In this document: positions 9,926-63,490 of the stretch, piece after piece | Layout of the letters: the number at the start of each line of letters is the position of its first letter | How positions within the stretch are numbered: the first letter of the stretch is position 1 | Program-made: the position numbers and the translations under genes | The notes under the pieces: generated by a model | Told to the model about the DNA's origin: nothing | Databases searched by the model: none | What the model saw: the letters and a program-made list of their open reading frames with translations, nothing else | Origin: Candidatus Omnitrophota bacterium | GTDB taxonomy: Bacteria > Omnitrophota > Gorgyraeia > Zapsychrales > Fredricksoniimonadaceae | Direction of reading: 5' to 3' | Assembly: GCA_963828495.1 (NCBI GenBank) | Contig: CAWHFJ010000009.1 | Span: forward strand, 298,338 to 362,337 | DNA length: 64,000 nucleotides

Positions 9926-9971
9926 CTCTTGTAAATACTCTGCGGTAAAAATAACACCCTCCCCTTAATTG

Positions 9972-12324: not shown

Positions 12325-12325
12325 T

Positions 12326-12679
12326 TTACTCCCATTCTAAGGCCTTTTTTTTCAAAACATAAAAAAGCCCTAGTGCCACAAATCCTATAAAGACCGCCAT
12401 CTCAACCAATCCCCATACGCCTAAGCTTCTAAAAACAACGGCCCAAGGAAAAAGGAACATCAACTCGACGTCAAATACAATAAAAAGCATGGCTACTATA
12501 TAAAAATGCACCGGGGTATTCCCGCCGGGCAAAGAAAAAGGTTTCATGCCGCATTCAAAAGGTCGTGATTTCTCTGCGCTGGGGCATCGGGGAGCCAAAA
12601 ACTTAGGGATGGCCAACAGGACAATCGCCATGGCTAAGGCGAATAAAAAAGCAAATAGTATCCCTGCGTATTCTACCAT
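12326..12679 (-). CDS. nuoA: NADH-quinone oxidoreductase subunit A
   Basis: Small three-helix membrane protein with a NuoA motif (PFECG...FDVELMFLFPWA). It is the first nuo gene of the minus-strand operon. Confidence 0.85.
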   Translation of the reverse strand: MVEYAGILFAFLFALAMAIVLLAIPKFLAPRCPSAEKSRPFECGMKPFSLPGGNTPVHFYIVAMLFIVFDVELMFLFPWAVVFRSLGVWGLVEMAVFIGFVALGLFYVLKKKALEWE

Positions 12680-12688
12680 TCTTCCCCC

Positions 12689-16626: not shown

Positions 16627-17233
16627 CCTCGATCCTTAAACCCCCGTCATGCTCAATATGGATCGTGTACAAATACCCGGGAATAAACACAACGCCGGGC
16701 GCTTCGATTTGCACGCTCTTGATGCCGGCATTTTTCGCTTTTTTCTCATCAAAAGCAAAACGCCAAAAATCTTTCCAGAATCTGTTTTCAAAACCCCCCG
16801 CGCGCCCCGGGATTTTATAGCCGTCGGGGATTGTGTCCACCGGGGTGATAGGAAATTCCTGCGTATTTGGGCCGTCGAGAAAAAACGCCTTCCAAAATAA
16901 ATACACGCTTTTGCCCCTGAAACGGTCCCCGGCGGCCACAAATTTATCTTCAAAACGCACGACCAAGGACTGAAACTGAATCAAATTCCCGCTGAAAGTA
17001 AAATATTTGGGCTCCATGGCCCTGCCTTCGGTATCATACTCGACGAATTTGATGGTGGTAAAATCCCGGTGCGCGGTCTCGTCAAAATTGACCTTGGTCA
17101 CCAGCACCTGGGCGGCACGCGACTCCGCCCCAAGCCGCTGCAACATTTGCTGATACGCATGCTCCTGATTAAACCGGTTGACGAGCCACCAGGCAGCTAT
17201 CATCAAAAAAAGGATAATAAAAAGTTTTTTCAT
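16598..17233 (-). CDS. Hypothetical membrane-anchored protein (211 aa from MKKLFIILF)
   Basis: The ATG at 17233 forms an ATGA overlap with the stop of the upstream TPR gene. It has one N-terminal TM helix and no family I recognise. The longer ORF start at 17329 would overlap the upstream gene. Confidence 0.5.
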   Translation of the reverse strand: MKKLFIILFLMIAAWWLVNRFNQEHAYQQMLQRLGAESRAAQVLVTKVNFDETAHRDFTTIKFVEYDTEGRAMEPKYFTFSGNLIQFQSLVVRFEDKFVAAGDRFRGKSVYLFWKAFFLDGPNTQEFPITPVDTIPDGYKIPGRAGGFENRFWKDFWRFAFDEKKAKNAGIKSVQIEAPGVVFIPGYLYTIHIEHDGGLRIEAKPLEKIFQ

Positions 17234-19038: not shown

Positions 19039-20966
19039 TGTATAGATATCTCCCCCCTGCCGCCTGTCCCTGATGCCTTCTTAAGCGCATGAAGAAATTG
19101 AGGATTGACCGCGTAGCCTAAGGCTTCTGCCCGACGGAGATTATCCCAAGCCTGAGCGTACTCTTTTAACTGATAAAAAACAACAGCCCGGTTATTATAC
19201 GTCTGTGCGAAATCCGGCTCTATGTCTATGGCCCTGTTATAATCAGCCATCGCCTGAAGATGCCGGCCTCCTTTAGCATAGGCATTGCCGCGATTATTAT
19301 ACTCCTGGGCGCTATGTGAGTTGATGGCAATGGCCTTGTTATAATCTGACAACGCTTGGAGCCAGTCGCCTTGACGGGAATAAACAGTCCCGCGATTGTT
19401 ATAGGCATCCGCATAGTCGGGCTTTATGGCAATGGCCTGGCTATAATCAGCTATCGCGCCGGGTAAATTGCCTTGATGGAATAAAGCGGCGCCTCGGTTG
19501 TTATAGACTTCTGCCCAGTTAGTGCTTAAGGCAATGGCTTTACTATAATCAGCTATGGCTTGAGCAAACCTGCCTTGGCTGGCATAAACAACCCCTCGAT
19601 TGTCATAGGCATTGACATATTCAGGATTTATGGCAATGGCCTTGTCGTAATCCGCTATGGCTTGAATAAAGTGGCCTTGCGCGTAATGCCCAAGGCCACG
19701 ATTATTGTAGGCTCTCGCTTTATGCGGAGACCTGCGCACGACATCTTCCCATAAGACAAGATCATTCTTCCAGACTTTATTGCGCTGGAAGGCGGCCATC
19801 GCCAATAGCGCGATCATACACCCTACGATCCCCAACACTAGGGTGCGTCTATGGCTTAGCATCGAGACCGCCGCCACCGCCGCCACAAAGAACCCGAATG
19901 AAATAAGATACAATTTATGCTCAAAGATCACATTGGCCCGGGGCGCCAAATTGGCAGAAAATGTGATCAGCATCCAGGCCAAACCAAAAGCTATTAAAGG
20001 CACACTCCGACGCAGCTTGATGATCAAACCGATCATACTGCCCATCACACATAATCCCACCAAGGTCAATGGCGGAGAAAGGAGTCCTGTGGAGACAGGA
20101 TAATCATAATCCAAATTCTGATGGATAGGTAACACCAACAGACGCAGAAAGGTCAAAAAGACCCTCATTTGAGTCAACACATAACGTGCCGGAGTCAACA
20201 TGTCCCCGTCGTGGGATTCGGAAAGTACTGATTGTGAAAAAACACTGAACCCCTGCTGTCCCATTTTGGTAAACAGCCCATACAATAAAACCCCGGCAAC
20301 CGCTAAAACAATATACAACGTCTTATTGTCCTTTTTAGGAAAGAGTATCCACTCTCCGGCCAGCATCATCGCCGGCACGGTAATGACCACTTCCTTGGTC
20401 ATAAGGCCAAAAACAGCTAAAAGCCCTGAGAGCCCAAATAATCTGATTTTATTGACCCTGTCCCCCGCCAGACGTGCGCTCAGATAGCAGTACATGGTCC
20501 CCAAATAAAACACCGTCGCCATAGATTCGAAACGCTGTGAAATATAACTCACGGCTTGGGTTTGGCAGGGGTGGACTAAAAAAAGGACCGCTATCATAAA
20601 GGGGAGTTCTTTGCTGAGGCGGTCTTGTGCGGGAAACCATTTGATTGTTTGAAACAACAGCCCCGCCAAAGCCCACACCAGCCCTGTCGCCGCCAGATGC
20701 ACGATAAAATTGAAAATGTGATAGCCCTGCGGATGGATTTGATTGAAATAATAATTGAGCGCAAAAGAATACATGCCCATCAAACGGGTCATGGGAAAAA
20801 AATGCCAGATGAGCGGAATGCGGCTGAAATCTTTAATGTAGAGATTATTAACAACGAAGGCACTGTCATCAAATACAAAACCAAAGGAAAACGTCTGGCC
20901 GTAAATCAAAAGCCCTATCAGAACAAGTACGGACCATCGCAGAAGATAATATAGAAAACTGGTCAC
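19035..20966 (-). CDS. TMTC/PMT-like GT-C glycosyltransferase with 6 C-terminal TPRs (paralog 2)
   Basis: ORF 19035..21026. The likely start is the GTG at 20966, which forms a GTGA overlap with the upstream stop and matches the length of paralog 1. About 390 aa are identical to paralog 1, followed by a diverged TPR array. Confidence 0.65.
   Translation of the reverse strand: MTSFLYYLLRWSVLVLIGLLIYGQTFSFGFVFDDSAFVVNNLYIKDFSRIPLIWHFFPMTRLMGMYSFALNYYFNQIHPQGYHIFNFIVHLAATGLVWALAGLLFQTIKWFPAQDRLSKELPFMIAVLFLVHPCQTQAVSYISQRFESMATVFYLGTMYCYLSARLAGDRVNKIRLFGLSGLLAVFGLMTKEVVITVPAMMLAGEWILFPKKDNKTLYIVLAVAGVLLYGLFTKMGQQGFSVFSQSVLSESHDGDMLTPARYVLTQMRVFLTFLRLLVLPIHQNLDYDYPVSTGLLSPPLTLVGLCVMGSMIGLIIKLRRSVPLIAFGLAWMLITFSANLAPRANVIFEHKLYLISFGFFVAAVAAVSMLSHRRTLVLGIVGCMIALLAMAAFQRNKVWKNDLVLWEDVVRRSPHKARAYNNRGLGHYAQGHFIQAIADYDKAIAINPEYVNAYDNRGVVYASQGRFAQAIADYSKAIALSTNWAEVYNNRGAALFHQGNLPGAIADYSQAIAIKPDYADAYNNRGTVYSRQGDWLQALSDYNKAIAINSHSAQEYNNRGNAYAKGGRHLQAMADYNRAIDIEPDFAQTYNNRAVVFYQLKEYAQAWDNLRRAEALGYAVNPQFLHALKKASGTGGRGEISIQ
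19742..20919. repeat. Copy 2 of the 1178-bp perfect direct repeat
   Basis: See copy 1. Off-frame ORF translations on both strands are also identical between the copies. Confidence 0.9.
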
Positions 20967-21625
20967 TTGCCTGTCGTTGTCGGTACGGTTGGGACTGTTG
21001 GAGGAATCTGCCCGCTCTGCTCCCATTGCTTGCGTGCGGCAAGCAGCTGCGCTCTGATCTGCGCCGCTGTTTGGGTGTCTCCGTTTTTGACTGCGGCACC
21101 CAGCGCAAAGAAAAGCGGTAGCTGGCTCTGCCTAAATTGCTCTTCTTGGGCGTGTCGGGCGGCCTGTCCCGGATGTGCCTGCAACCATGCTTGCTTGTTA
21201 GCCCTTATTTGAGCAAACCTCTGCTGCGCATTAGCGGCCAATTGACCCTGAAGTTGCTGGGCTGTTTTGGTATCCCCGCGGTCGGTCGCATCTTGTAGTT
21301 GAATTTTAAGCTGCATCTGCGCGTTAGCCCACTGGTCATTGGGATTATTCGACGGCGCCGGCGGATGGGCCTTGGCCCAGGCAATCTTTTGGGAGTGGAG
21401 CACTGCCATCTCCTGAAGAATCATCGCGTTCTCTTGGGCCTTAAGCTGCTGGGCTAAGGGTTGATTCCCGCTTTGTATGGCCTGCTTGATCTGGTCCCGT
21501 AGCTGTTGTAATTGTTGTTTAAATGCCTGCGCGTTAGGTGGAGAGCCTGGTGAAGTCTGGGCCAAAGAGACACTTGTGAAAATCGTCGCTAATCCCACAA
21601 GAAATAATATCTTTTTTAATTGCAT
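20963..21625 (-). CDS. Secreted Gln/Ala-rich repeat protein with a Thr/Pro-rich C-terminal tail
   Basis: Signal peptide MQLKKILFLVGLATIFTSVSLA. Three ~60-aa internal repeats (..TAQQLxxQL..K.AW..AHP..). The C-terminus is PPTVPTVPTTTGK. It is the first gene of a 4-gene chain. Confidence 0.55.
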   Translation of the reverse strand: MQLKKILFLVGLATIFTSVSLAQTSPGSPPNAQAFKQQLQQLRDQIKQAIQSGNQPLAQQLKAQENAMILQEMAVLHSQKIAWAKAHPPAPSNNPNDQWANAQMQLKIQLQDATDRGDTKTAQQLQGQLAANAQQRFAQIRANKQAWLQAHPGQAARHAQEEQFRQSQLPLFFALGAAVKNGDTQTAAQIRAQLLAARKQWEQSGQIPPTVPTVPTTTGK

Positions 21626-22332: not shown

Positions 22333-22821
22333 TCATTGCTGCTCTTCGTGCTCTTGGGCGTCGTGGATCTTCTCATGTTCAAGTTTATGTTTATGCATCA
22401 AGGCGGTAAACTCTGAAAACTGTTGGGGCGTCAAAATACTCCTGACCGCAAGGACGGAATTAAGCCGGTCATCCGCCATTTGAGATTCCAGCGCTTTAAG
22501 TCGGCTATGAAGTTCATGGATTTTATTCATATCCAGCTGCGGCTTCATCAATTCCTGTTGAAAAACTTGTCTATACGCTTTCCCTTGTTCCCGGATAGCT
22601 TTCATTCGAGCGCGATGCTGCATTTTATTGTCTTCCAATTGTTTTTTTTGAATTTCTGTCAAATGAAGCTGACTGTAAATTTCCTGAATGCCTCCGCCGC
22701 CATGCCTCCATGTGGGAGAGGACACCTCAGCCTCCGGGGAGCCTTCCGCGTGCACCCAAGCCGTCGCGCCAAAAACACAAAGCCATAGGCCGCTGAATAA
22801 AACTATTCTTAACTGTGTCAT
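22333..22821 (-). CDS. Periplasmic Spy/CpxP/ZraP-family (LTxxQ) protein with a His-rich tail
   Basis: Signal peptide MTQLRIVLFSGLWLCVFGATAWVHA. Two LTxxQ motifs (LTEIQ, LTPQQ). The C-terminus is HKHKLEHEKIHDAQEHEEQQ. The start forms an ATGA overlap with the sigma-factor stop. Confidence 0.65.
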   Translation of the reverse strand: MTQLRIVLFSGLWLCVFGATAWVHAEGSPEAEVSSPTWRHGGGGIQEIYSQLHLTEIQKKQLEDNKMQHRARMKAIREQGKAYRQVFQQELMKPQLDMNKIHELHSRLKALESQMADDRLNSVLAVRSILTPQQFSEFTALMHKHKLEHEKIHDAQEHEEQQ

Positions 22822-23381
22822 AGAAGACCCTTTCCTTGAAGATTGCCTTTTAAAGACAATAATTTCTCCCTGGCCCTTTTCAACCTTGAACGCACCGTAT
22901 TGATGTTGATTTTTAAAGCTTGGGCAATTTCCTGATAACTTAACCCCTCGATGTTGCGCAACACGACGCACGCCCTCTGGTCAGGGGAAATTTCTCCTAA
23001 AAGATGCTCGACGAGACGGCTTTGGTAGTCCTGATTCATATGCGCCTCAACCTCACTGGGAGCGGGAGAGACACCCTCACCCCAGGCTTCATCAAAGGCC
23101 ACTGTTTTTGTTCTGGAAGCTTTTTTGGCAAAATTAATCGCATAATTAGCTGTGATCCTGTACACCCAAGTTTTGAAAGAAGATTCAAAACGAAAACTTT
23201 TCAGTTTATTGTAAATAATTAAAAAGACCTCTTGGGTCACTTCCCTGGCATCTTCCGTGTTATTGACGACACGTAACGCCACGTTATAAACAAAACTTGA
23301 GCTTGCCTTATACACCTCCTCAAAGGCCTGCACATCTCCTTGAGACGCCCTGACTAAAACATCTTCACTGATCTGGTCCAT
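22818..23381 (-). CDS. ECF-type RNA polymerase sigma-70 factor
   Basis: Region 2 (VYNVALRVVNNTEDAREVTQEVF, WVYRITANYAINF) and a region 4 HTH (LSYQEIAQALKININTVRSRLKRAREKL). Confidence 0.85.
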   Translation of the reverse strand: MDQISEDVLVRASQGDVQAFEEVYKASSSFVYNVALRVVNNTEDAREVTQEVFLIIYNKLKSFRFESSFKTWVYRITANYAINFAKKASRTKTVAFDEAWGEGVSPAPSEVEAHMNQDYQSRLVEHLLGEISPDQRACVVLRNIEGLSYQEIAQALKININTVRSRLKRAREKLLSLKGNLQGKGLL

Positions 23382-23385
23382 TCGG

Positions 23386-23775
23386 CTAATCCCCGCCGGT
23401 CAAATAACGATTCAAAATTCTACCGTCTTCGGCATCAGCTAATTTTAAAATATTCTCTTCCATCCATTGGACCCATGCAGGCCTAAGGGTCTCTTCAGAT
23501 AAAAATCTCACTCCGCATCGATAGCACGCTTCCTCTTCCCCCCTCTGTCTGCTAAACCATGTCAAATGACCTTGGGATGGGAAAGAAGGTATCTCGGCAA
23601 CCCTGAAACATATGACTAGCTTATGTTCAGGAACAAACAATTTATCCGTTGTAAACAACATCCCCTCTAGGCTAATATTAAAAATTCTTCCTTCCCCTCC
23701 TGTTTTTTGGTCGGGGATAGACCAGGTCACATCCAATTGTTTGCGCAATCGAAAACTTTGGCGGTGATCAATCAT
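23386..23775 (-). CDS. PilZ-domain protein (canonical c-di-GMP-binding motifs)
   Basis: RxxxR (RQSFR) and NxSxxG (NISLEG) motifs. AGGAGG lies 5 nt upstream of the ATG at 23775. The ORF-track start at 23808 lies inside a tRNA-derived repeat. Confidence 0.75.
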   Translation of the reverse strand: MIDHRQSFRLRKQLDVTWSIPDQKTGGEGRIFNISLEGMLFTTDKLFVPEHKLVICFRVAEIPSFPSQGHLTWFSRQRGEEEACYRCGVRFLSEETLRPAWVQWMEENILKLADAEDGRILNRYLTGGD

Positions 23776-23795
23776 GTGGCCTCCTACAAATAAAA

Positions 23796-23814
23796 AATTG
23801 CCTCGCATGGACTC
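23796..23814 (-). repeat. 19-nt perfect copy of the tRNA-Gln 3' end (pseudo-tRNA fragment)
   Basis: AATTGCCTCGCATGGACTC occurs at 23796..23814 and at 24016..24034. Upstream, GGTTC plus a 14-nt hairpin insert mimics the T-loop. Confidence 0.7.
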
Positions 23815-25731: not shown

Positions 25732-26124
25732 TTAAATAAAGGGTTTGGACAGTTCCGTTCCGTTTTTGATCAACTGTTGCAGATTCTTCTGCAAATGATC
25801 GTGGTCTGCTTTGGACATCTGTGTAAATTCAATGCCGATACTATAAAACAAGGGCTTGACGGCTTCGTCGAATTTGCGGCGAACATTCCAGACCACCTTG
25901 CCTTTGGCATGAATGTGCTCGCTCATGTCTAAAAGATCGACTTCCATGGCCACCGGCGTAAAAAGTTTGATTTCCTTCTTTATAATAATGCAAAGGCCGC
26001 CTTGGCCGATGTTTTCCGTATGAGTCAACATCTCTGCCTCTAATTGACCGGCAGATAGTATTTTGACCATACATGGATACATCACTCTGGAGAATTGCCT
26101 GCGGTCCGTTCCTTCCCAAGCCAT
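25732..26124 (-). CDS. PilZ-domain protein (variant motif)
   Basis: RxxxR (RQFSR) and NIGQGG. GGAGGG lies upstream of the ATG at 26124. The ORF-track start at 26166 would overlap ymdB. Confidence 0.65.
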   Translation of the reverse strand: MAWEGTDRRQFSRVMYPCMVKILSAGQLEAEMLTHTENIGQGGLCIIIKKEIKLFTPVAMEVDLLDMSEHIHAKGKVVWNVRRKFDEAVKPLFYSIGIEFTQMSKADHDHLQKNLQQLIKNGTELSKPFI

Positions 26125-26125
26125 A

Positions 26126-26914
26126 TCATCCCTCCGCCACTTGTATGCGGTTAATGCCCCCCGCACGACCAGTTTTAGGATCTATCTGAACTATGGCGCC
26201 CTGTACCGTCGCCCGTGATTGGGCCACCTCAAATTTATGCGGCATGCTGGTCAGGAAGCGATTAATGATTTTTGATTTGTCCTGCCCGATCACTGAGTCA
26301 TCGGGACCACACATGCCCAAATCCGTAATGTACGCCGTGCCTTTAGACAAAATTTTCTCATCGGCGGTTTGTATGTGCGTATGTGTGCCAAAGACACATG
26401 AAACTTTCCCGTCAGCAAAATGGCCCAAGGCCACCTTTTCGCTGGTGGCCTCCGCGTGCATATCCACCATGATCAACGGTGTTTGCCCCTTTATTTGAGC
26501 GACGATGCTATCCAAAGCTAGAAACGGACAAAGAACATTATACCTCATAAAGACGCGGCCCAAAAGATTTATTACACCCACTTGTACACCGTTGGCCGCG
26601 GTGGCGATGGTCCATCCTGCCCCCGGTACGCCATCGGGAAAATTCGCCGGACGTATGATATTTTGAGAATGCGCCTGCAAAAAGTCAAAAATTTCCGGTC
26701 TGTTCCACGCATGGTCCCCCAGCGTGATCACGTCAATCCCAAAGCTTAAAAGTTCCTCGGCATTTTTAGGAATAAGCCCCGAGCCCCCCGAAGCATTCTC
26801 GGCATTGGCAATCACAAAATCGATGCTGCGCTCTTTTTTCAATGACGGCAGGACCTTACGCAGGGCCTCTCGTCCCGGACGGCCGACAATATCACCGATG
26901 CATAATATGTTCAT
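26126..26914 (-). CDS. ymdB: YmdB-family metallophosphoesterase (2',3'-cyclic-nucleotide phosphodiesterase-like)
   Basis: MNILCIGDIVGRPGR...ANAENASGG...GTHTHIQTAD is typical of YmdB. It lies directly downstream of rny, as in Bacillus. Confidence 0.8.
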   Translation of the reverse strand: MNILCIGDIVGRPGREALRKVLPSLKKERSIDFVIANAENASGGSGLIPKNAEELLSFGIDVITLGDHAWNRPEIFDFLQAHSQNIIRPANFPDGVPGAGWTIATAANGVQVGVINLLGRVFMRYNVLCPFLALDSIVAQIKGQTPLIMVDMHAEATSEKVALGHFADGKVSCVFGTHTHIQTADEKILSKGTAYITDLGMCGPDDSVIGQDKSKIINRFLTSMPHKFEVAQSRATVQGAIVQIDPKTGRAGGINRIQVAEG

Positions 26915-49255: not shown

Positions 49256-49531
49256 ATGGATACTATTAAAAATATCGTTGCAGAAGTTATAGGACGGATG
49301 TCTTCACAACAGGGTGCGTCATTCCAGAATATCCAGCAGGCATGGATGAGGATTTCCGGCGACAAGGCAAGTCGGGTAGCGGATTTTAAAGACGGCTGTG
49401 TCACCGTTTACGCGGACACGTCCATGCGCATGGTGAGGCTTAATTTAAACAGACAAAGCCTTCTGCAACAGTTAAATCAAGAATTTCCGTCGATCAAAAA
49501 AATTTGTTTTAAGGTGGGCCATATTGAATAG
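49256..49531 (+). CDS. DUF721/DciA-like small protein
   Basis: 91 aa in the dnaN-gyrB slot where DUF721 (DciA-type) genes usually sit. The sequence (WMRISGDKASRVADFKDGCVTVYADTSMRMVRLNL) fits that family by my recognition only. Confidence 0.6.
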   Translation: MDTIKNIVAEVIGRMSSQQGASFQNIQQAWMRISGDKASRVADFKDGCVTVYADTSMRMVRLNLNRQSLLQQLNQEFPSIKKICFKVGHIE

Positions 49532-52021
<2,490 letters not shown>

Positions 52022-52028
52022 CGTTAAG

Positions 52029-52056
52029 AATTGTCATTCCCGCGAAAGCGGGAATC
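52029..52056. repeat. REP-like hairpin element, copy 2
   Basis: Identical 28-mer to 49223..49250, lying intergenic between gyrB and gyrA. Confidence 0.8.
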
Positions 52057-52080
52057 CATAATTCACAGAAAGGCAGACCC

Positions 52081-54538
52081 ATGTCACGCGATTTGAACAA
52101 AAAAGAAAAGATCATCCCGGTTTATATTGAAGAGGAGATGAAGAACTCCTATCTTTCCTATTCGATGTCTGTGATCGTCGGGCGCGCGTTGCCCGACGTG
52201 CGCGACGGGCTCAAGCCCGTGCATCGGCGCATCCTTTATGCCATGAGGGAGCTCAATCTCGAGCACAACAAGCCCTATAAAAAGTCTGCCCGTATCGTCG
52301 GTGAGGTGCTGGGCAAATACCATCCCCACGGGGACTCCGCGGTGTATGACACGATGGTGCGCATGGTGCAGGATTTTTCTCTGCGGTATCCCTTGATCGA
52401 CGGTCAGGGCAATTTCGGCTCCATCGACGGGGACGCGGCGGCCGCCATGCGGTATACAGAGGCGCGCATGGCCTCGGTGGCTGAAGTGATGCTGGATGAC
52501 ATCGAAAAACAGACGGTGGATTTTAGCCCCAATTTCGACGGGTCGCTAGAAGAGCCCGACATCCTTCCGGGCATGGTGCCCAATCTTTTGGTCAATGGGT
52601 CCTCCGGTATTGCCGTGGGTATGGCGACAAATATGGCCCCGCATAATTTAGGGGAAGTGGTTGACGGCATTGTGCATCTTTTGGACAATCCCGAGGCCGT
52701 GGTCAAGGATTTGATGAAATTTGTCAAAGGCCCGGATTTCCCGACCGCGGGCATTATCTGCGGCAGGGAAGGGTTTATCGACGCCTACAATACCGGCCGC
52801 GGGAAGGTGCTGATCCGTGCCCGTGCCAGCATCGAGCAGCAAAAGGGCAATAAAGAAGCGATCATCATCACGGAGCTTCCTTATCAAGTCAACAAGGCCA
52901 ATCTTATTTTGAGCATGGCTGATTTGGTGCAGAACAAACAAATCGACGGGATCACCGATATCCGCGATGAAAGCGACAAAGACGGGATCCGGGTGGTCAT
53001 AGAACTTCGTCGCGACGTGGATGCCAATATTGTGCTCAATTATCTTTATAAGCACACCCAGATGGAAGTCACTTTCGGGATCATCAATTTGGCGCTGGTC
53101 AATAAATCGCCGAAAGTGCTTGAATTTAAAACAGCTGATGAACCATTATATTGCCCATCGTCGCGTGGTGATTCGCCGGCGCACGCAATTTGATTTGGAC
53201 AAAGCGGTTCGCCGGGCACATATTTTAGAAGGGTTTAAGATCGCGTTTAAGTATTTAGACGAGATCATAAAAACCATCCGCGCCTCCAAGACGACAGCAG
53301 GATGCCAAAGAAGCCTTGATCAAAAAATTCGACCTTTCCGAGGCCCAAGCCCAGGCCATTCTGGAGATGCAATTACAGCGCCTGGCGGCCCTGGAGCGCG
53401 ATAAAATCGAGGAGGAATATCAGCAGCTGTTAAAAGACATTGATAATTACCGCGGGATTTTGGCTTCTGAAAAGAGGGTGGATGCGATCATTAAAGAAGA
53501 ACTGGCCGAATTGAAAAAGAAGTACGCGGATGAGCGCCGTACCGAAATCGCCGGGCGTGCGGAAGATATCGAGATCGAGGACATGATCGCCGATGAGGAC
53601 ATGGCCATCACCATCAGCAATAAAGGGTATGTCAAGCGTCTGTCCATAGACGGCTACCGTTCGCAGAAACGCGGGGGCAAAGGGGTCACCGCCATGACCA
53701 CGTCCGATGAAGATTTTGTGGAGCGCATGTTTGTGGCCTCTTCCAAAGATTTTTTATTGATTTTTTCCAATGCAGGCACGGTGCGCTGGCTTAAGGTCTA
53801 TGAGATCCCGGTGGCCTCCCGTACGGCCCGGGGCAAGGCCATCGTGAACTTGGTGTCGTTTAAGCCCGAGGAGAAAATCAGCGCCATCGTGGCGGTCAAG
53901 GAATTCAGGGAAGACCAGTTCTTGGTATTTGCCACCAAAATAGGGCTGGTTAAAAAGACCAAGGTTTCGGCGTATAATAACCCGCGCAAAGGCGGCATTG
54001 TCGGCATCGGCGTGGAAAAAGGAGACGAGCTGATCGGCGTCGCTTTAAGCAACGGCAAGGAAGACGTTCTGTTGGCGACACGCCAGGGAATATCTTTGCG
54101 GTTTCCCGAGAAACAGTTGCGCGACATGGGACGTTCCGCCAAGGGGGTGCGGGGCATCAATTTGGAAAAAGGGGATTTTGTCGTCGGCATGCTGGTGTTT
54201 GCTCCGGATGTGGACAAGACCGGCGCCAAGCTTTTGTCCGTATGTGAATTGGGCTACGCGAAACGTTCAGACTTTGCTGAATACCGCACCCAATCCGCGG
54301 GGGCAAAGGGATCATTAATGTAAAGATCACCGAGAAAAACGGAGCGGTGGTGGGGATCATGGCGGTTTCTGACGGGGATGAGATCATGGCGGTGACCAAA
54401 CAGGGCATGGTGGTGCGTTCCTCTCCCTCTGAGATTCGGGAAACCGGCCGCAGCGCCGTGGGGGTGCGTTTGATTGCGCTGGAGAAAGCCGACAAGTTGT
54501 CGTCCATTGCTCATTTGGTCAGCCACGAAGAGGAATAG
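52081..54538 (+). CDS. gyrA: DNA gyrase subunit A, three frame changes as assembled
   Basis: Pieces 52081..53193, 53021..53404, 53316..54323 and 54347..54538 read as one continuous GyrA ([19 protein letters not shown] ... beta-pinwheel repeats). The frame changes near 53121, 53295 and 54295-54303 (a C/G run). Confidence 0.92.
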
Positions 54539-54559
54539 GAGAGTAAGGGGTTTATCTGC

Positions 54560-54588
54560 TTGACGAAAAAGAACGCCGGCAATATAAT
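54560..54588 (+). promoter_or_regulatory. Candidate sigma-70 promoter for tRNA-Glu
   Basis: TTGACG (54560..54565), a 17-nt spacer, then TATAAT (54583..54588), 25 nt before the tRNA 5' end. Confidence 0.5.
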
Positions 54589-54613
54589 ACCGATTCCAAG
54601 TCATTGTATTTTT

Positions 54614-54687
54614 GACCCCATCGTCTAGCCTGGTCAGGACACAAGCTTTTCAAGCTTGCAGCACGGGTTCAAATCCCGTTGGGGTCG
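54614..54687 (+). tRNA. tRNA-Glu (anticodon UUC)
   Basis: Acceptor GACCCCA/TGGGGTC, anticodon arm CAAGC-TTTTCAA-GCTTG, T arm ACGGG-TTCAAAT-CCCGT. No encoded CCA. Confidence 0.92.
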
Positions 54688-54709
54688 CTTTCAACTATCG
54701 AGGAGGACA

Positions 54710-55371
54710 ATGATGTTAACTATCTACGGTTCTGATTTATCCGCACCTGCCATCAAGGTCCGTTTGACCGCGAGCTTATTAGGCTTGCCTTACAAGTGGC
54801 AGATAGTCAACCTGCGCGAAGGCGAGCAAAAACAGGAATGGTTTTTGAAAATCAATCCGGTGGGCAAGGTGCCGGCCATGGACGATGACGGGTTTTATTT
54901 ATTTGAAAGCAACGCCATTTGTAAATACCTCTGTGACAAACAGGGCTCTTCTTTATACCCCAAGGACGCCAAAAAGCGTGCCACCGTTGATCAATGGATC
55001 GATTATGCTTCTTTTCATATGGGCGCTAATTTTATGCCGGTTGTGTATAATCGGGTTTTTGCCCCGCGCAGGGGGCAGGCCGGTCAATGAAAAAGCTATT
55101 GCCGACGCTCTTGAATTCCTCAAGCAGTACTTTCCTGTCATTGAAAACCAATTGACACAACACAAACACGTCGTGTCAGGCGGAGATATCATTAGCGGAC
55201 ATTATTTTATTGGCACTGCTCGAGCCGGCGGAAATGGCCCACATAGATTTAAGCGCGTATCCCCAATTAAACGCGTGGCGTACAGGGCTTAAAAAACAAA
55301 ATTTTTATACGAGTTGCTATAAAGAATATGGCGAAATGCTGAAAGCCCAGCCGCTGAAAGAAGACTATTAG
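54710..55371 (+). CDS. Glutathione S-transferase-family protein, two frame changes as assembled
   Basis: AGGAGG then ATG at 54710. The N-terminal thioredoxin-like domain has KINPVGKVPAMDDDGFYLFESNAICKYL. The frame changes near 55065 (G run) and 55190, and the C-terminus reads ..AYPQLNAWRTGLKKQ..KEDY. Confidence 0.75.
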
Positions 55372-56164
55372 ATGAAAGTCGCTCTTTTACAACTTTGTGC
55401 CGGGAAGATAAAAAGCCAATGTTCAACAGGCCGTCGCCATGTCCCAAGAGGCGCTATCGCAAGGGGCCGCATTTATGCTTTTGCCGGAAGTTTTTAATTT
55501 TCGTGGGACCGTAGGAATAAAAATTATTTGCAAAGGCGCGGAAAAAATACCGGGCCCATCAACACGACGCTTTTATTCCGCTGGCTAAAAAATACAAAGC
55601 CTCTTTCTTGTTGGGATCTATTTTAGAGAAAGCCACGTGCGATCACGCCTATAGCACCTCGGTGTTTATTGATCCTCAGGGGCAATCACCGCTCAATATC
55701 GTAAAATGCATTTATTTGATGCCCGTCTCGGGGAAGGATAGTCATTAAGGAAGCGGATCATTTGCTGGCTGGCCGCCGGCTCATGACGGCGAAGGCGGGA
55801 GAATTCAGGGTCGGGCTTTCTATTTGTTATGATTTGCGTTTTCCCGGCCTGTATCAAAATTATGGCCGCAGGGGGGTTGAAATTTTGACGGTACCGTCAT
55901 GTTTTACCAAGAAAGACCGGAGAGGCGCATTGGGAAGTCTTGCTGCGCGCCCGGGCTATTGAAAATTTGTGTTATGTTTTGGCCCCCAATCAGGTGGGCA
56001 GGACGGCCAGGGCATGCAAGCCTATGGGCACAGCATGATCATCTCCCCGTGGGGTGAGGTGATAGCGCAGGGCAGCGCCCAGGCCCAAGAAATTATTTTT
56101 GGCGAGATTGATCTTGAAGAAGTCAAGAAAGGCAAGGGCAATTTTACCGGGGATTGTGCCTTAA
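55372..56164 (+). pseudogene. Carbon-nitrogen hydrolase (nitrilase-superfamily) gene with about 7 frame changes
   Basis: Clean family-like segments sit in alternating frames: [122 protein letters not shown] and [14 protein letters not shown]. Breaks fall near 55412, 55565, 55685, 55738, 55915, 56000 and 56125. Confidence 0.7.
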
Positions 56165-56175
56165 GAGGAGAACAT

Positions 56176-57154
56176 ATGGCGAAACGGATAAAAGTGGCGG
56201 TGACCGGTGCGGCGGGCCAGATCGGATATGCGTTATTGTTTCGCATTGCCGCCGGGGAAATGTTCGGGAAAGACACGGAAATTGATTTAAGCCTATTGGA
56301 GCTGGAAAAAGCTTTGCCCGCCTTGCAAGGGGTGGTCATGGAGCTGGAGGATGGCGCCTTTCCTCTGTTGAGGGAGTTCGTGTCCATATCGGAGACCCGA
56401 ATCTTGCGTTTAAGGATATTGACTGGGCTTTATTGTTGGCAGCGTGCCGCGCCGTGAAGGCATGGAACGTGGCGACCTGCTTAAAGATCAACGGCGGGGT
56501 TTTTACTGTACAAGGCAGGGCCCTTTCAGAGCATGCCAAACCCGGCTGCAAAGTGCTCGTCGTCGGCAATCCCTGCAACACCAATGCGTTTATTGCCAAG
56601 AGTGTTTGTAAAAATATTCCCGCCAAGAATTTTTTTGCCATGACCATGCTTGATGAGAACCGCGCGCGGACTCAATTGGCGCAAAAAGCGCTGCGTAACG
56701 TGTCCCTGGTCAAAAATCTGGCCATTTGGGGAAACCATTCATCGACCCAATATCCGGATTTTTATCATGCGACTATCGACGGACATCCGGCCGTGGAAGT
56801 GATTAAAGACGAGGCATGGCTTAAGGGCCCATTTATTGAAACGGTGCAAAAAAGGGGAGCGCCATCATCAAGGCCCGCGGGCTTTCTTCCGCGGCCTCGG
56901 CGGCCAATGCGGTGATTCAGACGGTGCACAACATCACGACACCAACGCCTGCCGGTGAATTTTTTTCAGCCGCAGTTTCTTCAGATGGCAGTTATGGCGT
57001 TGAGCCGGGGATTATTTTTAGTTTTCCTTTACGTTCTAACGGCAAGGATTGTGAAATTGTACAAAATCTCAAGCATAATGAATTTGCCCAAAATAAAATT
57101 AAAGCCACCTTGGATGAGCTTTTAGCGGAAAAAGATGCGGTAAAGCATCTTTAA
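56176..57154 (+). CDS. mdh: Malate dehydrogenase (LDH-like MDH type 2), four frame changes as assembled
   Basis: GAGGAG then ATG at 56176. The sequence includes [44 protein letters not shown] and a C-terminus ending ..[10 protein letters not shown]. Breaks fall near 56383, 56428, 56482 and 56866. Confidence 0.85.
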
Positions 57155-57303
57155 ACAAGCTTACGGATTCGAAGGAACAGGAAATATTTAGTTTGACTTT
57201 TTATTGACCTTAACAAAAAATTAATATATGATTTTATTTATTGAAACATAATAAGTTAGAGAGAAATTATCTAGTAAAAAAGGGTAATTTTAGGGGCAGC
57301 AGC

Positions 57304-57332
57304 TTGCATTTTGAATAAATACCAGGTATACT
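57304..57332 (+). promoter_or_regulatory. Candidate sigma-70 promoter upstream of the PPIase/Tad-like gene block
   Basis: TTGCAT (57304..57309), a 17-nt spacer, then TATACT (57327..57332), in a ~210-bp AT-rich spacer. Confidence 0.4.
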
Positions 57333-57365
57333 TTACAAACATTGTCCAGTCAAGGAGATGATTTT

Positions 57366-58291
57366 ATGAGAAGGCCAGGAGGAATGGTGTGTGGGGTATT
57401 ATTTTTAACGTTGGGGGTTATCTCTTTGACCGGCTGTGACCTGCTGGGGATAGGGCCTAAAAAGCAAGATCATGCCAAACAGCACAGCCGCCGGCATCTG
57501 TAGAAGGGCCTTTGCCCAAGAATGTTTTAGCCCGTGTGGGTAACTGGACATTGACAACCGATGAGTTTAATGAACGGTTGAAACTTTTAAAGCAGGGCCT
57601 TCCGGATTTTAAAGACAATGACGCCAACACCAAAAAAATGGTTTTAGATGAACTTATTCGTCAGCAGCTTTTGGTCAAAGATGCCCAAGACTCGGGGATA
57701 GGCGAGAGCAAAGACATTAAAGATGCCGTGGAGGATTTTCGCAAAACCCTTCTTGTCCAGGAATTGGCCAATCGTCTGACAAAGGATGTCGCGGCCAATG
57801 AAACAGATGCCCGTCTATGGTACGATGAAAATAAAGATAAATTTGCCCAGCCGATCACCTGGAAGGTCCGCGAAATTGTGGTCCCCGATGAGGCGACGGC
57901 TAAAAACCTCTTGGCGCAAGTTTTGCAGGGTGGCGATTTTGCCCAGATCGCCCAGGCGCAATCCAAGGGGGCTACTGCAGCCATGGGAGGAGAATTAAAG
58001 CCATTCATGACCGGCAAAGCGCCTTTTGAGGCTATGCAAGCGGCGATTGCTAATCTAGGCGAAGGAGACCTTAGCACGGTATTCAAGGGGCCACAGGGGT
58101 ATTATATTGTCAAGGTAGATTCCAAAAAAGGCGGCACGGTCAAGCCTTTTGCCGATGTTAAAAATGATTTGATCAGCGGATTGACGATGCAAAAACAACA
58201 AGCGGTCATTTTGGAACATTTGAATAAATTAGCTGAAAAGAATAAAGTAGAAATTAATAAAGAGTTAGTCGATGAAACGACAAAACCATAA
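57366..58291 (+). CDS. Lipoprotein parvulin-type peptidyl-prolyl isomerase (PrsA/SurA-like), one frame change
   Basis: AAGGAG then ATG at 57366. Signal peptide with lipobox (VISLTGC). The frame changes near 57478 at an A run and joins ORF 57512..58291, which has a SurA_N-like region plus a PpiC domain (WKVREIVV..GGELKPF..GYYIVKV). Confidence 0.75.
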
Positions 58292-58309
58292 GGAATAGGG
58301 AGGCGGGAC

Positions 58310-59092
58310 ATGCCCTTAGAGAATAAAAAACAACTCTTGATTATTCTTGGAGCTGTGGCCGCCGGGATTTTTGCGGTTATTTTGACCAGCGGTTATGTCA
58401 AAAGCAGCATTGAAGGACAGACTGCGGCTTTGGCCGAACGCTACGAGGTCAAGCAAAAAGAGGCAGTGTCCCAAATCCAACAGAGAAGCGATCAGCAGAT
58501 GGCGGCCTTGGCTGGGGAGTTGCAACGTGTCAAAGCCGAGCAGGCGCAGGCCATACAAAAACAAATGGCCGCTTTGCAGTCAGAGATACAAAGCAGGCCC
58601 ATCCAGCAACAGGTCATTGCCCCAGTTAAAAGACCCAAGCCGTCGTTGGCTCTAAAAACACCGGCAGGCAAGCGTGCGGTGACGGTGATGATCGATTCCC
58701 TGGAAGCGGTGGGCGGACTGCTTAATGCCGGAGATTTTGTGGACGTGATAGCCGAATTGAATGTGCCCGCACAAACAGCGGAGAAAAAAACCGTGACCGC
58801 GATGATTTTTCAGGGCTTACAGGTCTTGGCCGTCAATACCAATCTGGATGAGCCGGGCCAGTACGATCAACAGCAGGCTCCGGCCTTAAAAATTACGTTT
58901 GCGGTTGACCCGCAAGAAGCAGGACTTTTAGCTTTTGCCAATAAAAATGGCAAACTGCAGTTAGCCTTGCGTTCTCCGGATGAAATCCAGACCCAAAAGG
59001 TGAAAGCCTCCACTTGGAAAACCCTGGCGGACTATGTGTTACAAAATGAGGGGTATAATATTCAAAATCCAGACGGGGAGACCGGGGAATAA
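58310..59092 (+). CDS. cpaB: Flp/Tad pilus assembly protein CpaB/RcpC-like
   Basis: N-terminal TM helix, a Gln-rich coiled coil, then PAGKRAVTVMIDSLEAVGGLLNAGDFVDVIA and a KLQLALRSP-type C-terminus typical of CpaB. Confidence 0.75.
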   Translation: MPLENKKQLLIILGAVAAGIFAVILTSGYVKSSIEGQTAALAERYEVKQKEAVSQIQQRSDQQMAALAGELQRVKAEQAQAIQKQMAALQSEIQSRPIQQQVIAPVKRPKPSLALKTPAGKRAVTVMIDSLEAVGGLLNAGDFVDVIAELNVPAQTAEKKTVTAMIFQGLQVLAVNTNLDEPGQYDQQQAPALKITFAVDPQEAGLLAFANKNGKLQLALRSPDEIQTQKVKASTWKTLADYVLQNEGYNIQNPDGETGE

Positions 59093-59152
59093 ACCCGCAG
59101 AGAAAAAATCAAACATTCAAATTTTTAGAGGAGGCAAGGAACTCTAACGGAT

Positions 59153-60881
59153 ATGAAACCCCATTTTCTAAAATATTTTTTTAGCATTGTCTTTATTTTT
59201 GTTTTTATGATGGCGCGAGGGGCATTTTTATCTGCGCAGGAGAATGCGACAGACACAGACGCTATTGATTTGGTTGTTGGGGATATTGAAAATGTAACGG
59301 CTAACGGTTTAATACGGGTGTCTATTACCAACCCGGAGATAGCAGATATTTCAGACGTCCAAAGCGGCAAAGTTTCGCTGTTGGCCAAAAGAGCCGGAGA
59401 GACAATTTTGTTTTTGTGGGACTCTTCGGGCAAGCGCAGCATGAAAGTGCGCGTGGTGAATGAAGATTTAAGCGTGGTCAAGGCCCGTGTGCAGAAGATA
59501 TTAGATGAAGCGAACATGTCAGGCATTTCTTTGCAAATCAACACGGATGAAGGCAAGGTCGTTGTGTCCGGGGCTGTTTCCAAGGACAATAAAGTCAGGT
59601 TGGATAAAATTTTGGGTGGCTATAAGGACAGCTTGTTGAATTTTGTTACAGAAGAAAAAGACGAGTCCTTGATCCAGGTGGATATGCAGATTGTGGAAAT
59701 CAGCACGTCTTTGGAGAAAGATTTGGGAATCCTTTGGGGGACGGGGAGTGGCGGGACAGGGACAGTCACTGTGGGTAGTGGGAGTACGAATTCCGGCGCT
59801 GTCAATCTTAATTATGGGGAAAATATGCCTTCGGGGCACAAATTTGCAGACCTTTTTAAGATAGGCAGTTTTCAGCGGACAACTCCGTTAGAGGCCACAG
59901 TTAATGCGTTGGTCCAAGAAGGCAAGGCACGGCTTATTTCCAAGCCCCGCCTGGTGGTAGTCAGCGGCAAACAAGCCAGTTTCTTGGTGGGCGGAGAAAT
60001 TCCCGTTGAAAACACGACCACTAATTCCATAGGGACTTCACAAACCACCAGCACGACCTATTCACAATATGGGGTTAATTTGATGGTCACGCCGACCCTC
60101 CGCGCAGGGAAAATCGATGTACAACTCAATGTGGATATTCGAGACATTGACTCCGCGCCGCCGGCTGGCTCGTCCAATAGTGGAAATGGCTTTTATTACG
60201 CGCTCGGCCCAGACCGACTTATTGATGGACAATAAGCAGACCATCGTACTGGCGGGGTTGATTAAATATTCCGACTCGGAACAAGTGACCTCGGTCCCGT
60301 TTCTTTCTAAAATTCCTATTGTGGGGGCCTTGTTTAGAAATCGTAACAACCCCGGGGATAGCAACACGGAAATGGTGATTATTGTGACACCGATGGTGCT
60401 TGCCGACAAGAAATTCGCGGACAAACAATTGGTGATGCCCACTCCGGCGGAGCGTCAGAGTTGGCAAGAAATAGATGCGAAGTATGAGCATGAACCTCTT
60501 GCCGGCAACAAGAGCACTGCCCCGGATAATAGCGCAACGCCGCTATCGGAAATGACGATCTACGCGCGCCTTATTCAAGAGAAAATTTCCAAGATGATTA
60601 CCTATCCACAGGAGGCCATGCAGAATTATTGGACAGGCACCGTGAAACTCAGGCTAAGGATTCTTAGAAACGGGACATTGGCTTCAGGTGAAGTTGTTCA
60701 ATCTTCAGGTCATGCGGTCTTTGATGAGGATGCGCTACGTGCCGCCCAAATGGGCGCTCCCTATGACGCATTTACGGCAGGGATGAATCAGGATGAGCTG
60801 GTTTTTATGGTCCCTATCGTTTATAATAAGGTGACTGAGGGGGGGCAATCGCTGCCGGAGAAAGTCATTGCCTCGTACTAG
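59153..60881 (+). CDS. cpaC: CpaC/RcpA-type secretin fused to a C-terminal TonB_C-like domain, one frame change
   Basis: Signal peptide, a pilus-formation N-terminal domain (IDLVVGDIENV..ITNPEIADI), a BON-like region and a secretin core (GKARLISKPRLVVVSGKQASFLVGGEIPV ... VPFLSKIPIVGALFRNR). The frame changes near 60175. The last ~95 aa (YPQEAMQNYWTGTVKLRLRILRNGTL..VVQSSGHAVFDEDALRAA) look like TonB_C. Confidence 0.8.
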
Positions 60882-60969
60882 GCGTCCTCTCGTTCGTCGC
60901 TGAAAAACGATCCTATCGGCATTAAATCTCCCCGTGACAAAATTGTAAATCGTGATAAAATAAAAAACT

Positions 60970-63154: not shown

Positions 63155-63490
63155 ATGGTCGTTAACCTGACCCGTCAGTGTACGATAGCGTCGAGTGTTA
63201 AAGTGGCCAGTAATCCCTGGCAACGTGTTAAAGGGCTGCTGGGGGCGCGCCATCTGCCTCAAAAAGAGGCGCTGGTCATAACCCGCTGTCAGTCCATTCA
63301 CATGGTTTTTATGAAATTCCCTATTGATGTGATTTTTTGTGATGCCCAAAATACAGTGGTGGGCTTGTGTGAAAACATCCAACCTTTTTGTTTTTCCCCG
63401 ATTTTTTGGAAAGCGTCATATGCCATTGAATTGCCTGCAGGCAGTATAAATGCTTCCAATACCCAAATAGGGGACCAAATGCAGATGTAA
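63155..63490 (+). CDS. DUF192 (COG1430)-like small protein
   Basis: 111 aa. RVKGLLG....AL.I..C.SIHMVFMKFPIDVIF and AIELPAG resemble DUF192, by my recognition only. Confidence 0.65.
   Translation: MVVNLTRQCTIASSVKVASNPWQRVKGLLGARHLPQKEALVITRCQSIHMVFMKFPIDVIFCDAQNTVVGLCENIQPFCFSPIFWKASYAIELPAGSINASNTQIGDQMQM

Follow-up and report, generated by a model that had tools for sequence, protein, structure and literature searches.

A Tad-type secretin with a C-terminal TonB_C domain is conserved across the Omnitrophota

The placement of secretins in the outer membrane, and their retention there, usually require separate helpers such as pilotins and peptidoglycan-binding accessories, and how the secretins of Tad systems are anchored is only recently starting to be resolved. 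The C-termini of solved secretins lie on the periplasmic side, outside the barrel. Here we describe a gene in a stretch of 64,000 nucleotides from contig CAWHFJ010000009.1 of a Candidatus Omnitrophota bacterium (this whole stretch is called the window throughout), which encodes a Tad-type secretin that continues beyond its secretin core into a domain of the TonB_C type. Among the closest described systems, the last four residues of P. aeruginosa RcpA bind the pilotin TadD (PMC10499894), and Pseudomonas RcpC binds RcpA by beta-sheet completion, an RcpC hairpin completing the sheet of the RcpA N-domain (PMC12307814). The OmpA-like lipoprotein CpaD of Caulobacter forms a belt around the secretin CpaC and is proposed to act as its peptidoglycan anchor (PMC13170226) and, in type II secretion, the TonB-like protein ExeB/GspB binds periplasmic domains of the secretin ExeD (PMC4098917). 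The C-terminal domains (CTDs) of TonB and TolA bind their partners through beta-strand addition (PMC12204202). Moreover, type IV pilus assembly and twitching in P. aeruginosa require tonB3 (Huang et al. 2004, as summarized in a citing paper), and natural transformation in A. baumannii requires tonB2, for which a part in pilus assembly has been only suggested; the mechanism is unexplained for both genes.

A reading of the DNA made from its letters alone (the sequence-only reading) had proposed that the secretin and the TonB_C-like tail belong to one frame-corrected protein, and this proposal is borne out by Pfam and NCBIfam scores, the predicted fold, the gene neighbourhood and conservation in well over 100 independent relatives. 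In the deposited sequence, the gene is divided between two overlapping open reading frames (ORFs) on the + strand, which lie in different frames. The first, 59153..60235 (360 residues), encodes the N-terminal two thirds of the secretin, and the second, 60117..60881, takes up the secretin consensus (..AFITRSAQTDLLMDNKQTIVLAGLI..) and reads through to the stop codon. Deleting one spurious base, as justified below, joins them into a protein of 575 residues, one fewer than the sequence-only reading had counted. When this repaired protein is scanned with the profile hidden Markov models (HMMs) that had been suggested as a check, T2SS-T3SS_pil_N, Secretin and TonB_C all score above their cut-offs (Table 1). 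TonB_C (PF03544) matches residues 483-558 with an E-value of 1.6e-15 and 57.7 bits against a curated cut-off of 24.6, the TonB_2 model gives a weaker match to residues 470-532 (25.6 bits), and NCBIfam tonB_Cterm (TIGR01352) scores 46.7 bits against a cut-off of 27.1. The ring-building domain that follows the N-domain gives a weak Pfam match, under the cut-off, to the YscD BON-like domain. Pfam finds neither STN nor Secretin_N in the repaired protein, and the NCBIfam secretin models for GspD, PilQ, MshL and SctC all remain far under their equivalog cut-offs.

The predicted structure agrees with this assignment. AlphaFold2 was run on an intact homologue with 71 aligned relatives, giving a mean predicted local distance difference test (pLDDT) score of 75.6, and the tail encoded in the window was modelled by itself for a Foldseek search of the PDB. 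In the AlphaFold2 model, residues 38-103 form an all-beta N-domain with pLDDT above 90, the secretin sheets occupy residues 174-417, and residues 466-557 fold compactly into a helix, the YP motif, a short helix, two strands, a helix and a strand, with pLDDT of 86-95. The full-length model finds as its top fold matches the Acidithiobacillus secretin (9wfd/8jvb), followed by GspD, InvG, PilQ and RcpA (8odn), and it also matches the TonB CTD 9ddz with a target-normalized TM-score (TMt) of 0.78 and a root-mean-square deviation (rmsd) of 1.4 A. All of the best 26 PDB fold matches of the tail model are CTDs of TonB, FusB, HasB or TolA, including H. pylori TonB (5lw8; E 2.8e-5, TMt 0.73), TonB in its complex with BtuB (2gsk_B; TMt 0.75, rmsd 1.7 A) and TonB in its complex with FhuA (2grx_C; TMt 0.79), as the sequence-only reading had anticipated for the fold. 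Searching PDB sequences with a profile of the family gives a consistent picture, with E-values of 7.5e-50 for 8jvb, 1.9e-34 for RcpA 8odn and 3e-9 for TonB CTDs (6sly, 5lw8). The protein thus belongs to the secretin superfamily (PF00263), by an HMM score above threshold and by profile and fold matches to solved secretins; its N-terminal region, judged by sequence, has the PF13629 domain of Tad-type secretins in place of the N0/STN domain and Secretin_N repeats. The tail belongs to the TonB_C family (PF03544/TIGR01352) by HMM score, by its YP and SSG..D..A motifs and by its predicted alpha/beta fold, and on sequence grounds it is a typical TonB_C domain, nearer to TonB than to TolA. The NCBIfam tolA_full model reaches only 24.1 bits against a cut-off of 59.45, and there are no tol-pal genes near the gene.

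The limits that the sequence-only reading set for the tail, 60552..60830, were essentially right, the structural domain with its N-terminal helix extending over 60549..60827. Its description of what precedes the domain, a low-complexity linker of about 45 residues, holds for one part only. Residues of about 450-465 are variable in the alignment and disordered in the AlphaFold2 model (450-463 there), whereas residues 428-449 are conserved (VMPTP..ER..W.EI..KYEHEP) and include a predicted helix at 432-444 (60447-60485). The stretch that connects the secretin core to TonB_C varies in length across the family, from 18 to 358 residues with a median of about 46, and E, K, A, P and Q are over-represented in it. 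This variability in length and composition indicates a tethered domain and not one that is packed rigidly on the barrel. Some of the long linkers are rich in EK and A and resemble domain II of TolA. Within the tail itself, the invariant or near-invariant positions are Y470, Q475, I478 and S479 in the leading helix, followed by Y484-P485, G495-T-V-K-L, G507, S517-S-G..D524..A527..A531, P536..F540 and P554-I-V-Y557. The last strand is the best-conserved part of TonB_C, with P554 and I555 invariant and V556 and Y557 conserved at 89-96%; this strand corresponds to the edge strand that pairs with the Ton box in TonB complexes. Most members of the family end no more than three residues beyond ..PIVYxL. 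The sub-clade to which the window belongs adds a variable spacer of ~12 residues and then a conserved heptad, [EQ][KT]V[IV]A[SA]Y, with which the protein ends in about 49 of 71 close relatives; among the 138 cluster representatives, only about 5 have it. The version of this heptad in the window, EKVIASY (residues 569-575), resembles a Ton box (compare ETVVVTA). The idea that it folds back in cis as the beta4 strand of TonB is unsupported, the segment being disordered with pLDDT below 50 in both models (residues 561-575 in that of the intact homologue). Its ligand could be the TonB_C domain of a neighbouring protomer, a tetratricopeptide repeat (TPR) pilotin or something else.

The distribution of the fusion was examined in three ways. 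The repaired protein gave 750 matches in a word-indexed search, and nearly all of the full-length proteins among the best 120, which were inspected for domains, contain PF13629, PF00263 and PF03544. A phmmer search of 1.84 billion cluster representatives (50% identity) gave 375 proteins at E<=1e-30, the best 150 of which (to about 29% identity) were scanned with HMMs built from the family alignment. In these 150 representatives, the secretin core and TonB_C share one chain in 138; a further 10 "secretin-only" entries are short fragments, and at least 12 have two TonB_C domains in tandem. Members with tandem TonB_C domains or with long linkers include proteins P0121, P0122, P0124, P0127, P0128, P0130, P0213, P0234, P0238 and P0265 and loci L027, L030, L035 and L036. 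Finally, one genome per GTDB species was scanned with an alignment of the tails of close relatives, a survey biased towards such relatives, and this gave 40 loci, in 39 of which one ORF contains the N-domain, Secretin and TonB_C together (L032 is the sole exception). The absence of a stop codon between the secretin core and TonB_C, as read from the window alone, extends to 39/40 related species and 138/150 cluster representatives, and the survey of co-occurrence that the sequence-only reading had proposed comes out in favour of the fusion. All 40 loci are labelled as Omnitrophota, as "uncultured Planctomycetales" (labels of third-party metagenome-assembled genomes, MAGs) or just as "bacterium", nearly all having the first of these labels. 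In the most distant clusters few members are named, and these too are Omnitrophota with the exception of one, which is probably a mis-binned fragment. Taken together, these surveys show that secretin::TonB_C is a large, vertically inherited family of the Omnitrophota, conserved throughout the phylum. Public databases name its members "TonB family protein [Candidatus Omnitrophica]" (NCBI) or "pilus assembly protein CpaC" (JGI), for example P0055, P0075, P0079, P0097 and P0120. The first name is misleading because the proteins have no inner-membrane anchor and no ExbBD nearby, and the fusion is evident from neither name.

Consistent with the statement in the sequence-only reading that no characterized secretin carries a TonB_C module, no description of such a protein was found in the literature searched, which leaves most subscription journals outside its coverage. 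A paper on the genomics of the Omnitrophota (PMC10066038), which reports expression of the Tad complex in the Velamenicoccus archaeovorus enrichment, discusses Tad and RcpA and never TonB, and the fusion is not described in a paper on the evolution of type IV filaments, in a paper on the Myxococcus Kil system or in a survey of TonB/TolA evolution (PMC12204202). A 2026 preprint notes "TonB-domain content" beside Tad cassettes without recognizing the fusion. The protein is thus a Tad secretin variant that is conserved throughout the phylum and has a TonB arm of reversed polarity; we found no prior description of it, and its mechanism we infer below.

The genes on either side make this a tad/cpa locus, with RcpC upstream of the secretin and a TadZ::CpaF fusion downstream in the window (Table 1). 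The protein is the secretin of the outer membrane in a Tad-like (Flp/type IVc) pilus machine of an Omnitrophota bacterium. In model Tad systems TadZ and CpaF are separate proteins; their fusion is conserved in relatives L003, L004, L045 and L046. Upstream of rcpC lies a gene for a SurA/PrsA-like peptidyl-prolyl isomerase (PPIase) with a lipoprotein signal, the lipobox cysteine of which is present in the window and in 5/5 relatives examined. Its position next to rcpC and the secretin is kept also in distant members with a different outer synteny, and the PPIase may be a dedicated chaperone or "pilotin" for secretin::TonB_C. The same gene order is found in Omnitrophota MAGs at 43-87% protein identity. 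In two distant members, L045 and L046, the outer synteny is different and PPIase, RcpC, secretin::TonB_C and TadZ::CpaF are kept, in a slightly altered order in L045; the secretin::TonB_C gene is always part of this module. Small pilin-like genes of the Flp/class-III-signal kind lie downstream in relatives, with weak matches to Flp_Fap, Class_IIIsignal and TadE-like families, and Pfam does not recognize TadB or TadC in the relatives. The RcpC C-termini of L001, L003, L004, L045, L046 and the window (~59100-59144) end in a conserved, strand-like ..IQIFRGGKEL or ..IEV[FY]RG.. segment. By analogy, this strand is likely to be the counterpart of the Pseudomonas RcpC beta-hairpin that binds the RcpA N-domain, and it is also a candidate ligand of the fused TonB_C domain.

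We also looked for the partners that a TonB, TolA or conventional Tad system would be expected to have nearby. There is no gene for ExbB, ExbD, TolQ or TolR among the scanned ORFs of the 64-kb window or within ~8-10 kb in L001, L003, L004, L045 and L046. TonB-dependent transporter genes are absent from the scanned ORFs of the window and from about 10 kb around the gene in four relatives. No Pal, OmpA or TadD-sized TPR lipoprotein is encoded among the scanned ORFs of the window, which also has no second TonB_C domain of the same type. The further claim of the sequence-only reading that no CpaD/TadD-type gene is present agrees with the lack of a TadD-, CpaD- or OmpA-like gene within about 10 kb in the window and four relatives, a result that allows for such a gene elsewhere in the genome. 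Three large TPR proteins encoded at 14965-21026 were considered as TadD-like pilotins and rejected, being 550-660 residues long and encoded about 40 kb away.

Comparison with described systems places the protein closest to RcpA and CpaC, with which it shares the PF13629 N-domain, the ring-building domain, the Secretin core and neighbours of the RcpC/CpaB and CpaF-type ATPase families; RcpA (8odn) and 8jvb are its best solved sequence matches. RcpA, however, ends in a short, unstructured S-domain that binds TadD, whereas the window protein has ~160 extra residues comprising a helix, the tether and TonB_C. Unlike the loci of RcpA and CpaC, moreover, that of the window has no TadD or CpaD gene nearby and has its ATPase fused to TadZ, so that the combination of a short S-domain with a TadD pilotin or CpaD partner is missing here. 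With the CTDs of TonB, HasB and FusB (5lw8, 6sly, 2gsk, 7zc8, 2m2k) the tail has in common the motifs YP, GTVxL, SSG..D..A and vPIvY as well as the predicted fold, and its N-terminal helix is also present in H. pylori TonB and HasB. In TonB itself, an N-terminal helix engages ExbB/ExbD and fixes the protein in the inner membrane, from where it reaches to the outer membrane. The fused domain, in contrast, hangs from the outer-membrane pore with reversed polarity and has no motor partner in its neighbourhood, a topology that is, to our knowledge, the reverse of that of every TonB studied. An inner-membrane helix of the TonB (SHLS) type is absent, the sole hydrophobic helix being that at residues 3-27, after which the secretin domains begin. 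The protein is neither a TonB energy transducer nor a TolA: it has no inner-membrane anchor and no ExbBD neighbours, and it stays below the tolA_full threshold.

CpaD, TsaP and the AMIN domains of PilQ (both from type IVa pili) and ExeA/ExeB are likewise peripheral modules that surround or contact secretins and tie them to peptidoglycan or aid their assembly. CpaD, TsaP and ExeA/ExeB are separate proteins and AMIN is part of PilQ, whereas the module described here is joined covalently to the secretin C-terminus; all of these accessories have other folds (OmpA-like, LysM, AMIN), the module of the window protein having that of TonB_C. By analogy, the fused domain may be functionally equivalent to CpaD, TsaP, AMIN or ExeAB. 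A genetic link between TonB_C domains and type IV filament machines is provided by TonB3 (P. aeruginosa) and TonB2 (A. baumannii), but both are free proteins of the inner membrane, from proteobacterial type IVa pilus systems, with no direct contact to a secretin shown.

These comparisons suggest a role for the tail as a built-in periplasmic tether or assembly adaptor. Each of the 13-14 protomers of the ring would hang one TonB_C domain (two in some relatives) into the periplasm on its tether. The domain would then capture a short beta-strand of a partner, in a manner mechanically like that of the TonB and TolA CTDs, and possibly contact peptidoglycan. The secretin would in this way carry its own anchor or assembly adaptor, and the tether would hold the pore in place against the forces of pilus extension and retraction, much as may be done by the Caulobacter CpaD belt, by TsaP or AMIN domains, by ExeAB or by a pilotin. 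Since there is no inner-membrane anchor and no ExbB/ExbD nearby, the domain cannot transduce proton-motive force. We judge the chances of this tether or adaptor role, a peptidoglycan-associated target included, to be about even. The proposal of the sequence-only reading, that the tail could tether the pore to peptidoglycan or to a partner and so replace a pilotin or a lipoprotein of the CpaD/TadD type, is plausible.

Several points weigh against a tether or adaptor. The AlphaFold2 monomer model has nothing docked on TonB_C. The conservation of the edge strand might stem from packing of the domain core and not from ligand binding. The evidence for peptidoglycan binding by TonB CTDs is older in-vitro work. 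The minimal linker of 18 residues reaches only a few nanometres, so that a target at the inner membrane is unlikely for such members. A pilotin or CpaD-like gene could be located elsewhere in the genome and, because the lipoprotein PPIase may already serve in piloting, replacement of a pilotin is a conjecture.

The main alternative to a tether that holds an outside partner, though a rather unlikely one, is that TonB_C adds a strand from within the machine to its sheet (beta-augmentation), giving a daisy-chained collar or clamp that would stabilize or gate the ring in place of anchoring it to the wall. The candidate strands are the EKVIASY heptad of a neighbouring protomer, the secretin N-domain and the ..IQIFRGGKEL C-terminus of RcpC. 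In the clade of the window, the heptad is kept beyond a variable spacer in about 49/71 close relatives, it resembles Ton boxes, and in the monomer models it is disordered and undocked, as expected of a motif that binds in trans. Tandem TonB_C variants exist, the C-terminal strand of RcpC is conserved, and Pseudomonas RcpC does bind RcpA through beta-sheet completion (PMC12307814). Most of the family, however, ends within three residues of the domain, and the heptad is therefore not a general ligand of TonB_C; nor do 13- or 14-fold rings and very long linkers obviously fit a tight collar.

The fusion might also be regarded as a "Rosetta stone" for a direct action of TonB-type CTDs on type IV filament secretins, a contact that the Omnitrophota would have hard-wired as an arm of reversed polarity. 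We think this broader proposition unlikely as matters stand but, if it were true, there would be an unrecognized class of secretin accessories by which the pore is latched either to the cell wall or to a strand motif in the periplasm, and the same contact made in trans would explain the need for TonB3 in Pseudomonas and TonB2 in Acinetobacter in type IV pilus function.

It is very unlikely that TonB_C instead binds the Ton boxes of outer-membrane transporters or other proteins and clusters them at the pilus base, perhaps with competition against the cell's own TonB or with uptake of prey material coupled to the Tad machine. The domain does score far better as TonB_C than as TonB_2 (57.7 against 25.6 bits), with tolA_full under its cut-off, and the Omnitrophota are predicted predators or parasites with prominent Tad systems (PMC10066038). 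Nevertheless, neither the window nor the neighbourhoods in relatives contain genes for TonB-dependent transporters or ExbBD, and, according to a preprint in the part that deals with the surroundings of giant-protein genes, canonical import architecture of the TonB-dependent receptor/sus type is absent from the complete Omnitrophota genomes collected there. In addition, binding without a motor would block transport and not drive it.

Should a ligand of the domain be found, the built-in tether or adaptor would represent a novel mode of secretin anchoring or assembly, would extend the uses of the TonB_C fold beyond energy transduction, and could illuminate the unexplained genetic link of TonB paralogues with type IV pili. 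The fusion places a protein-capture domain of the TonB/TolA type on the pore throughout a phylum whose members are ultra-small, for the most part uncultured and probably predators or parasites. Annotation of its members as "TonB family protein" or as fragments hides a conserved Tad component, and surveys of the Omnitrophota may miscount both TonB and Tad as a result.

That the secretin core and TonB_C form one protein in the source organism depends on how the break between the two frames is read. The sequence-only reading had put the frame change at 60175, and the sequences of relatives move it to the run of A at 60184-60186. In the DNA of L001, the closest relative with DNA available (88% identical across the secretin gene), the TTTT run at 60191-60194 is retained and the bases just upstream read GGA-GTGGC where the window has GGAAATGGC; in the protein alignment, the very close relative P0006 has ..SAPPAGSSNSGVAFITR.. 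at the site of the break. Deleting one A from 60184-60186, which gives ..SSNSGMAFITR.., is the most parsimonious repair on these alignments. Deletion of a T from the run at 60191-60194 was considered as a repair and rejected, the relatives retaining this run; the two repairs differ by two residues. An intact homologue of 575 residues, P0001, is 94% identical to the repaired protein, and the public protein for the window locus, P0016, is a truncated gene call of 360 residues. The secretin gene is one of at least seven consecutive genes, within 12 kb, that are split between frames when compared with a relative at ~88-93% DNA identity, gyrA lying in four pieces, the GST and mdh genes in three each, and the CN_hydrolase, PPIase and rcpC genes in two each. 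The last ~40 codons of rcpC, for example, are in another frame through a further indel, continuing in frame 3 at 59025-59144 (tblastn with L001 RcpC). Because the essential gyrA lies in four frames, the frameshift in the secretin gene is an indel error and not biology. The alignments with relatives thus point to an assembly or sequencing artefact, in an assembly that is full of single-base indels, probably from long reads, and no frameshift in the window should therefore be taken as biology. A true pseudogene or programmed frameshifting in the source organism, with secretin core and TonB_C not forming one protein, has in its favour that the frameshift is present in the deposited sequence and that P0016 is a truncated product. 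We nevertheless hold it to be highly improbable given the breakage of at least seven genes, the position of the extra base inside a homopolymer, the strong conservation of both halves of the gene without further lesions, and similar damage in L032, another long-read MAG relative (80% identical, 215 gap positions in 6.5 kb), whose genes are likewise shattered. That gene calling or assembly merged adjacent genes for a secretin and a stand-alone TonB-like protein is scarcely conceivable, nothing except the general error rate of the assembly speaking for it when both domains lie in a single ORF in 39/40 independent species-level genomes from many studies and in one chain in 138/150 cluster representatives, and the linker segment is conserved; both of these explanations are essentially excluded.

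Table 1. Coordinates of the secretin::TonB_C gene, its domains and neighbouring features (window positions unless a relative is named; residues refer to the repaired protein)
Feature	Coordinates	Strand	Basis or remark
Whole secretin::TonB_C gene	59153..60881	+	575 residues after deletion of one spurious base; stop codon 60879-60881
Predicted signal peptide, residues 1-28, ending ..FLSA	59153..59236	+	Suggested by hydrophobic helix 3-27 (AlphaFold2); A28 nearly invariant
T2SS-T3SS_pil_N (PF13629), Tad-type secretin N-domain, residues 36-101	59258..59455	+	E 2.2e-9, 37.3 bits against cut-off 23
Predicted alpha-beta-beta-alpha-beta ring-building (BON/N3-like) domain, residues 107-168	59471..59656	+	AlphaFold2, pLDDT about 90
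Secretin core (PF00263), residues 252-416	59906..60401	+	E 2.4e-38, 131.8 bits against cut-off 27.5; frameshift inside
A-run with single extra base, splitting the gene into two frames	60184..60186	+	Alignments with L001 DNA and P0006 protein
Linker, residues 417-465	60402..60548	+	AlphaFold2 model, alignment
TonB/TolA-type C-terminal domain, residues 466-558	60549..60827	+	N-terminal helix, YP motif 484-485, then beta-beta-alpha-beta
C-terminal tail, residues 559-575, predicted disordered, ending EKVIASY (60858-60878)	60828..60878	+	pLDDT <50
Genes with frame breaks, window 49500-60900	gyrA 52081-54535; GST 54713-55347; CN_hydrolase 55372-56158; mdh 56176-57151; PPIase 57366-58288; rcpC 58310-59144; secretin 59153-60881		Comparison with relative
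SurA/PrsA-like PPIase, lipoprotein signal (..SLTGC), indel-split	57342..58291	+	Pfam Rotamase_2, SurA_N
PPIase in relatives	L001 8217-9137; L003 8098-9069; L004 8164-9114; L045 6950-7870; L046 744-1622		
rcpC/cpaB, Tad alignment-complex protein	58310..59144	+	Pfam RcpC E 2.8e-24
TadZ/ParA-like + CpaF/TadA-type (T2SSE) ATPase fusion, 724 residues	60970..63144	+	Pfam AAA_31/ParA 3-186, T2SSE 363-638
DUF192 (COG1430) protein, directly 3' of TadZ::CpaF ATPase	63155..63490	+	Pfam E 3.6e-20

The wider setting of the locus is the origin region of the chromosome, with yidC, parB, dnaA (46608), dnaN (48127), gyrB and gyrA in the window, and gyrA is followed in order by GST, CN_hydrolase, mdh, PPIase, rcpC, the secretin, the TadZ::CpaF fusion and DUF192. 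The DUF192 gene likewise follows the Tad ATPase in L003 and L004. Of the three large TPR proteins at 14965-21026, one (553 residues) is encoded on the + strand and two (602 and 663 residues) on the - strand; their ~400 N-terminal residues have no Pfam match and the TPR repeats are C-terminal. Genes for PilZ-domain proteins (23389-23808 and 25735-26166, - strand) and for an extracytoplasmic function (ECF) sigma factor (22821-23381, - strand) are found near them. In L046, the Tad-like module is followed at 9627-13721 by PilM, PilO and T2SSB-like genes and by a second, conventional secretin (STN + Secretin_N + Secretin), and TonB_C is present in this genome region on the Tad-type secretin only and not on the second one. 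Finally, an ORF of 336 residues with no Pfam match (L003 11742-12752) lies between the secretin and ATPase genes of L003, where it overlaps the secretin stop codon; it was seen in that relative only and is absent from the window and L004.

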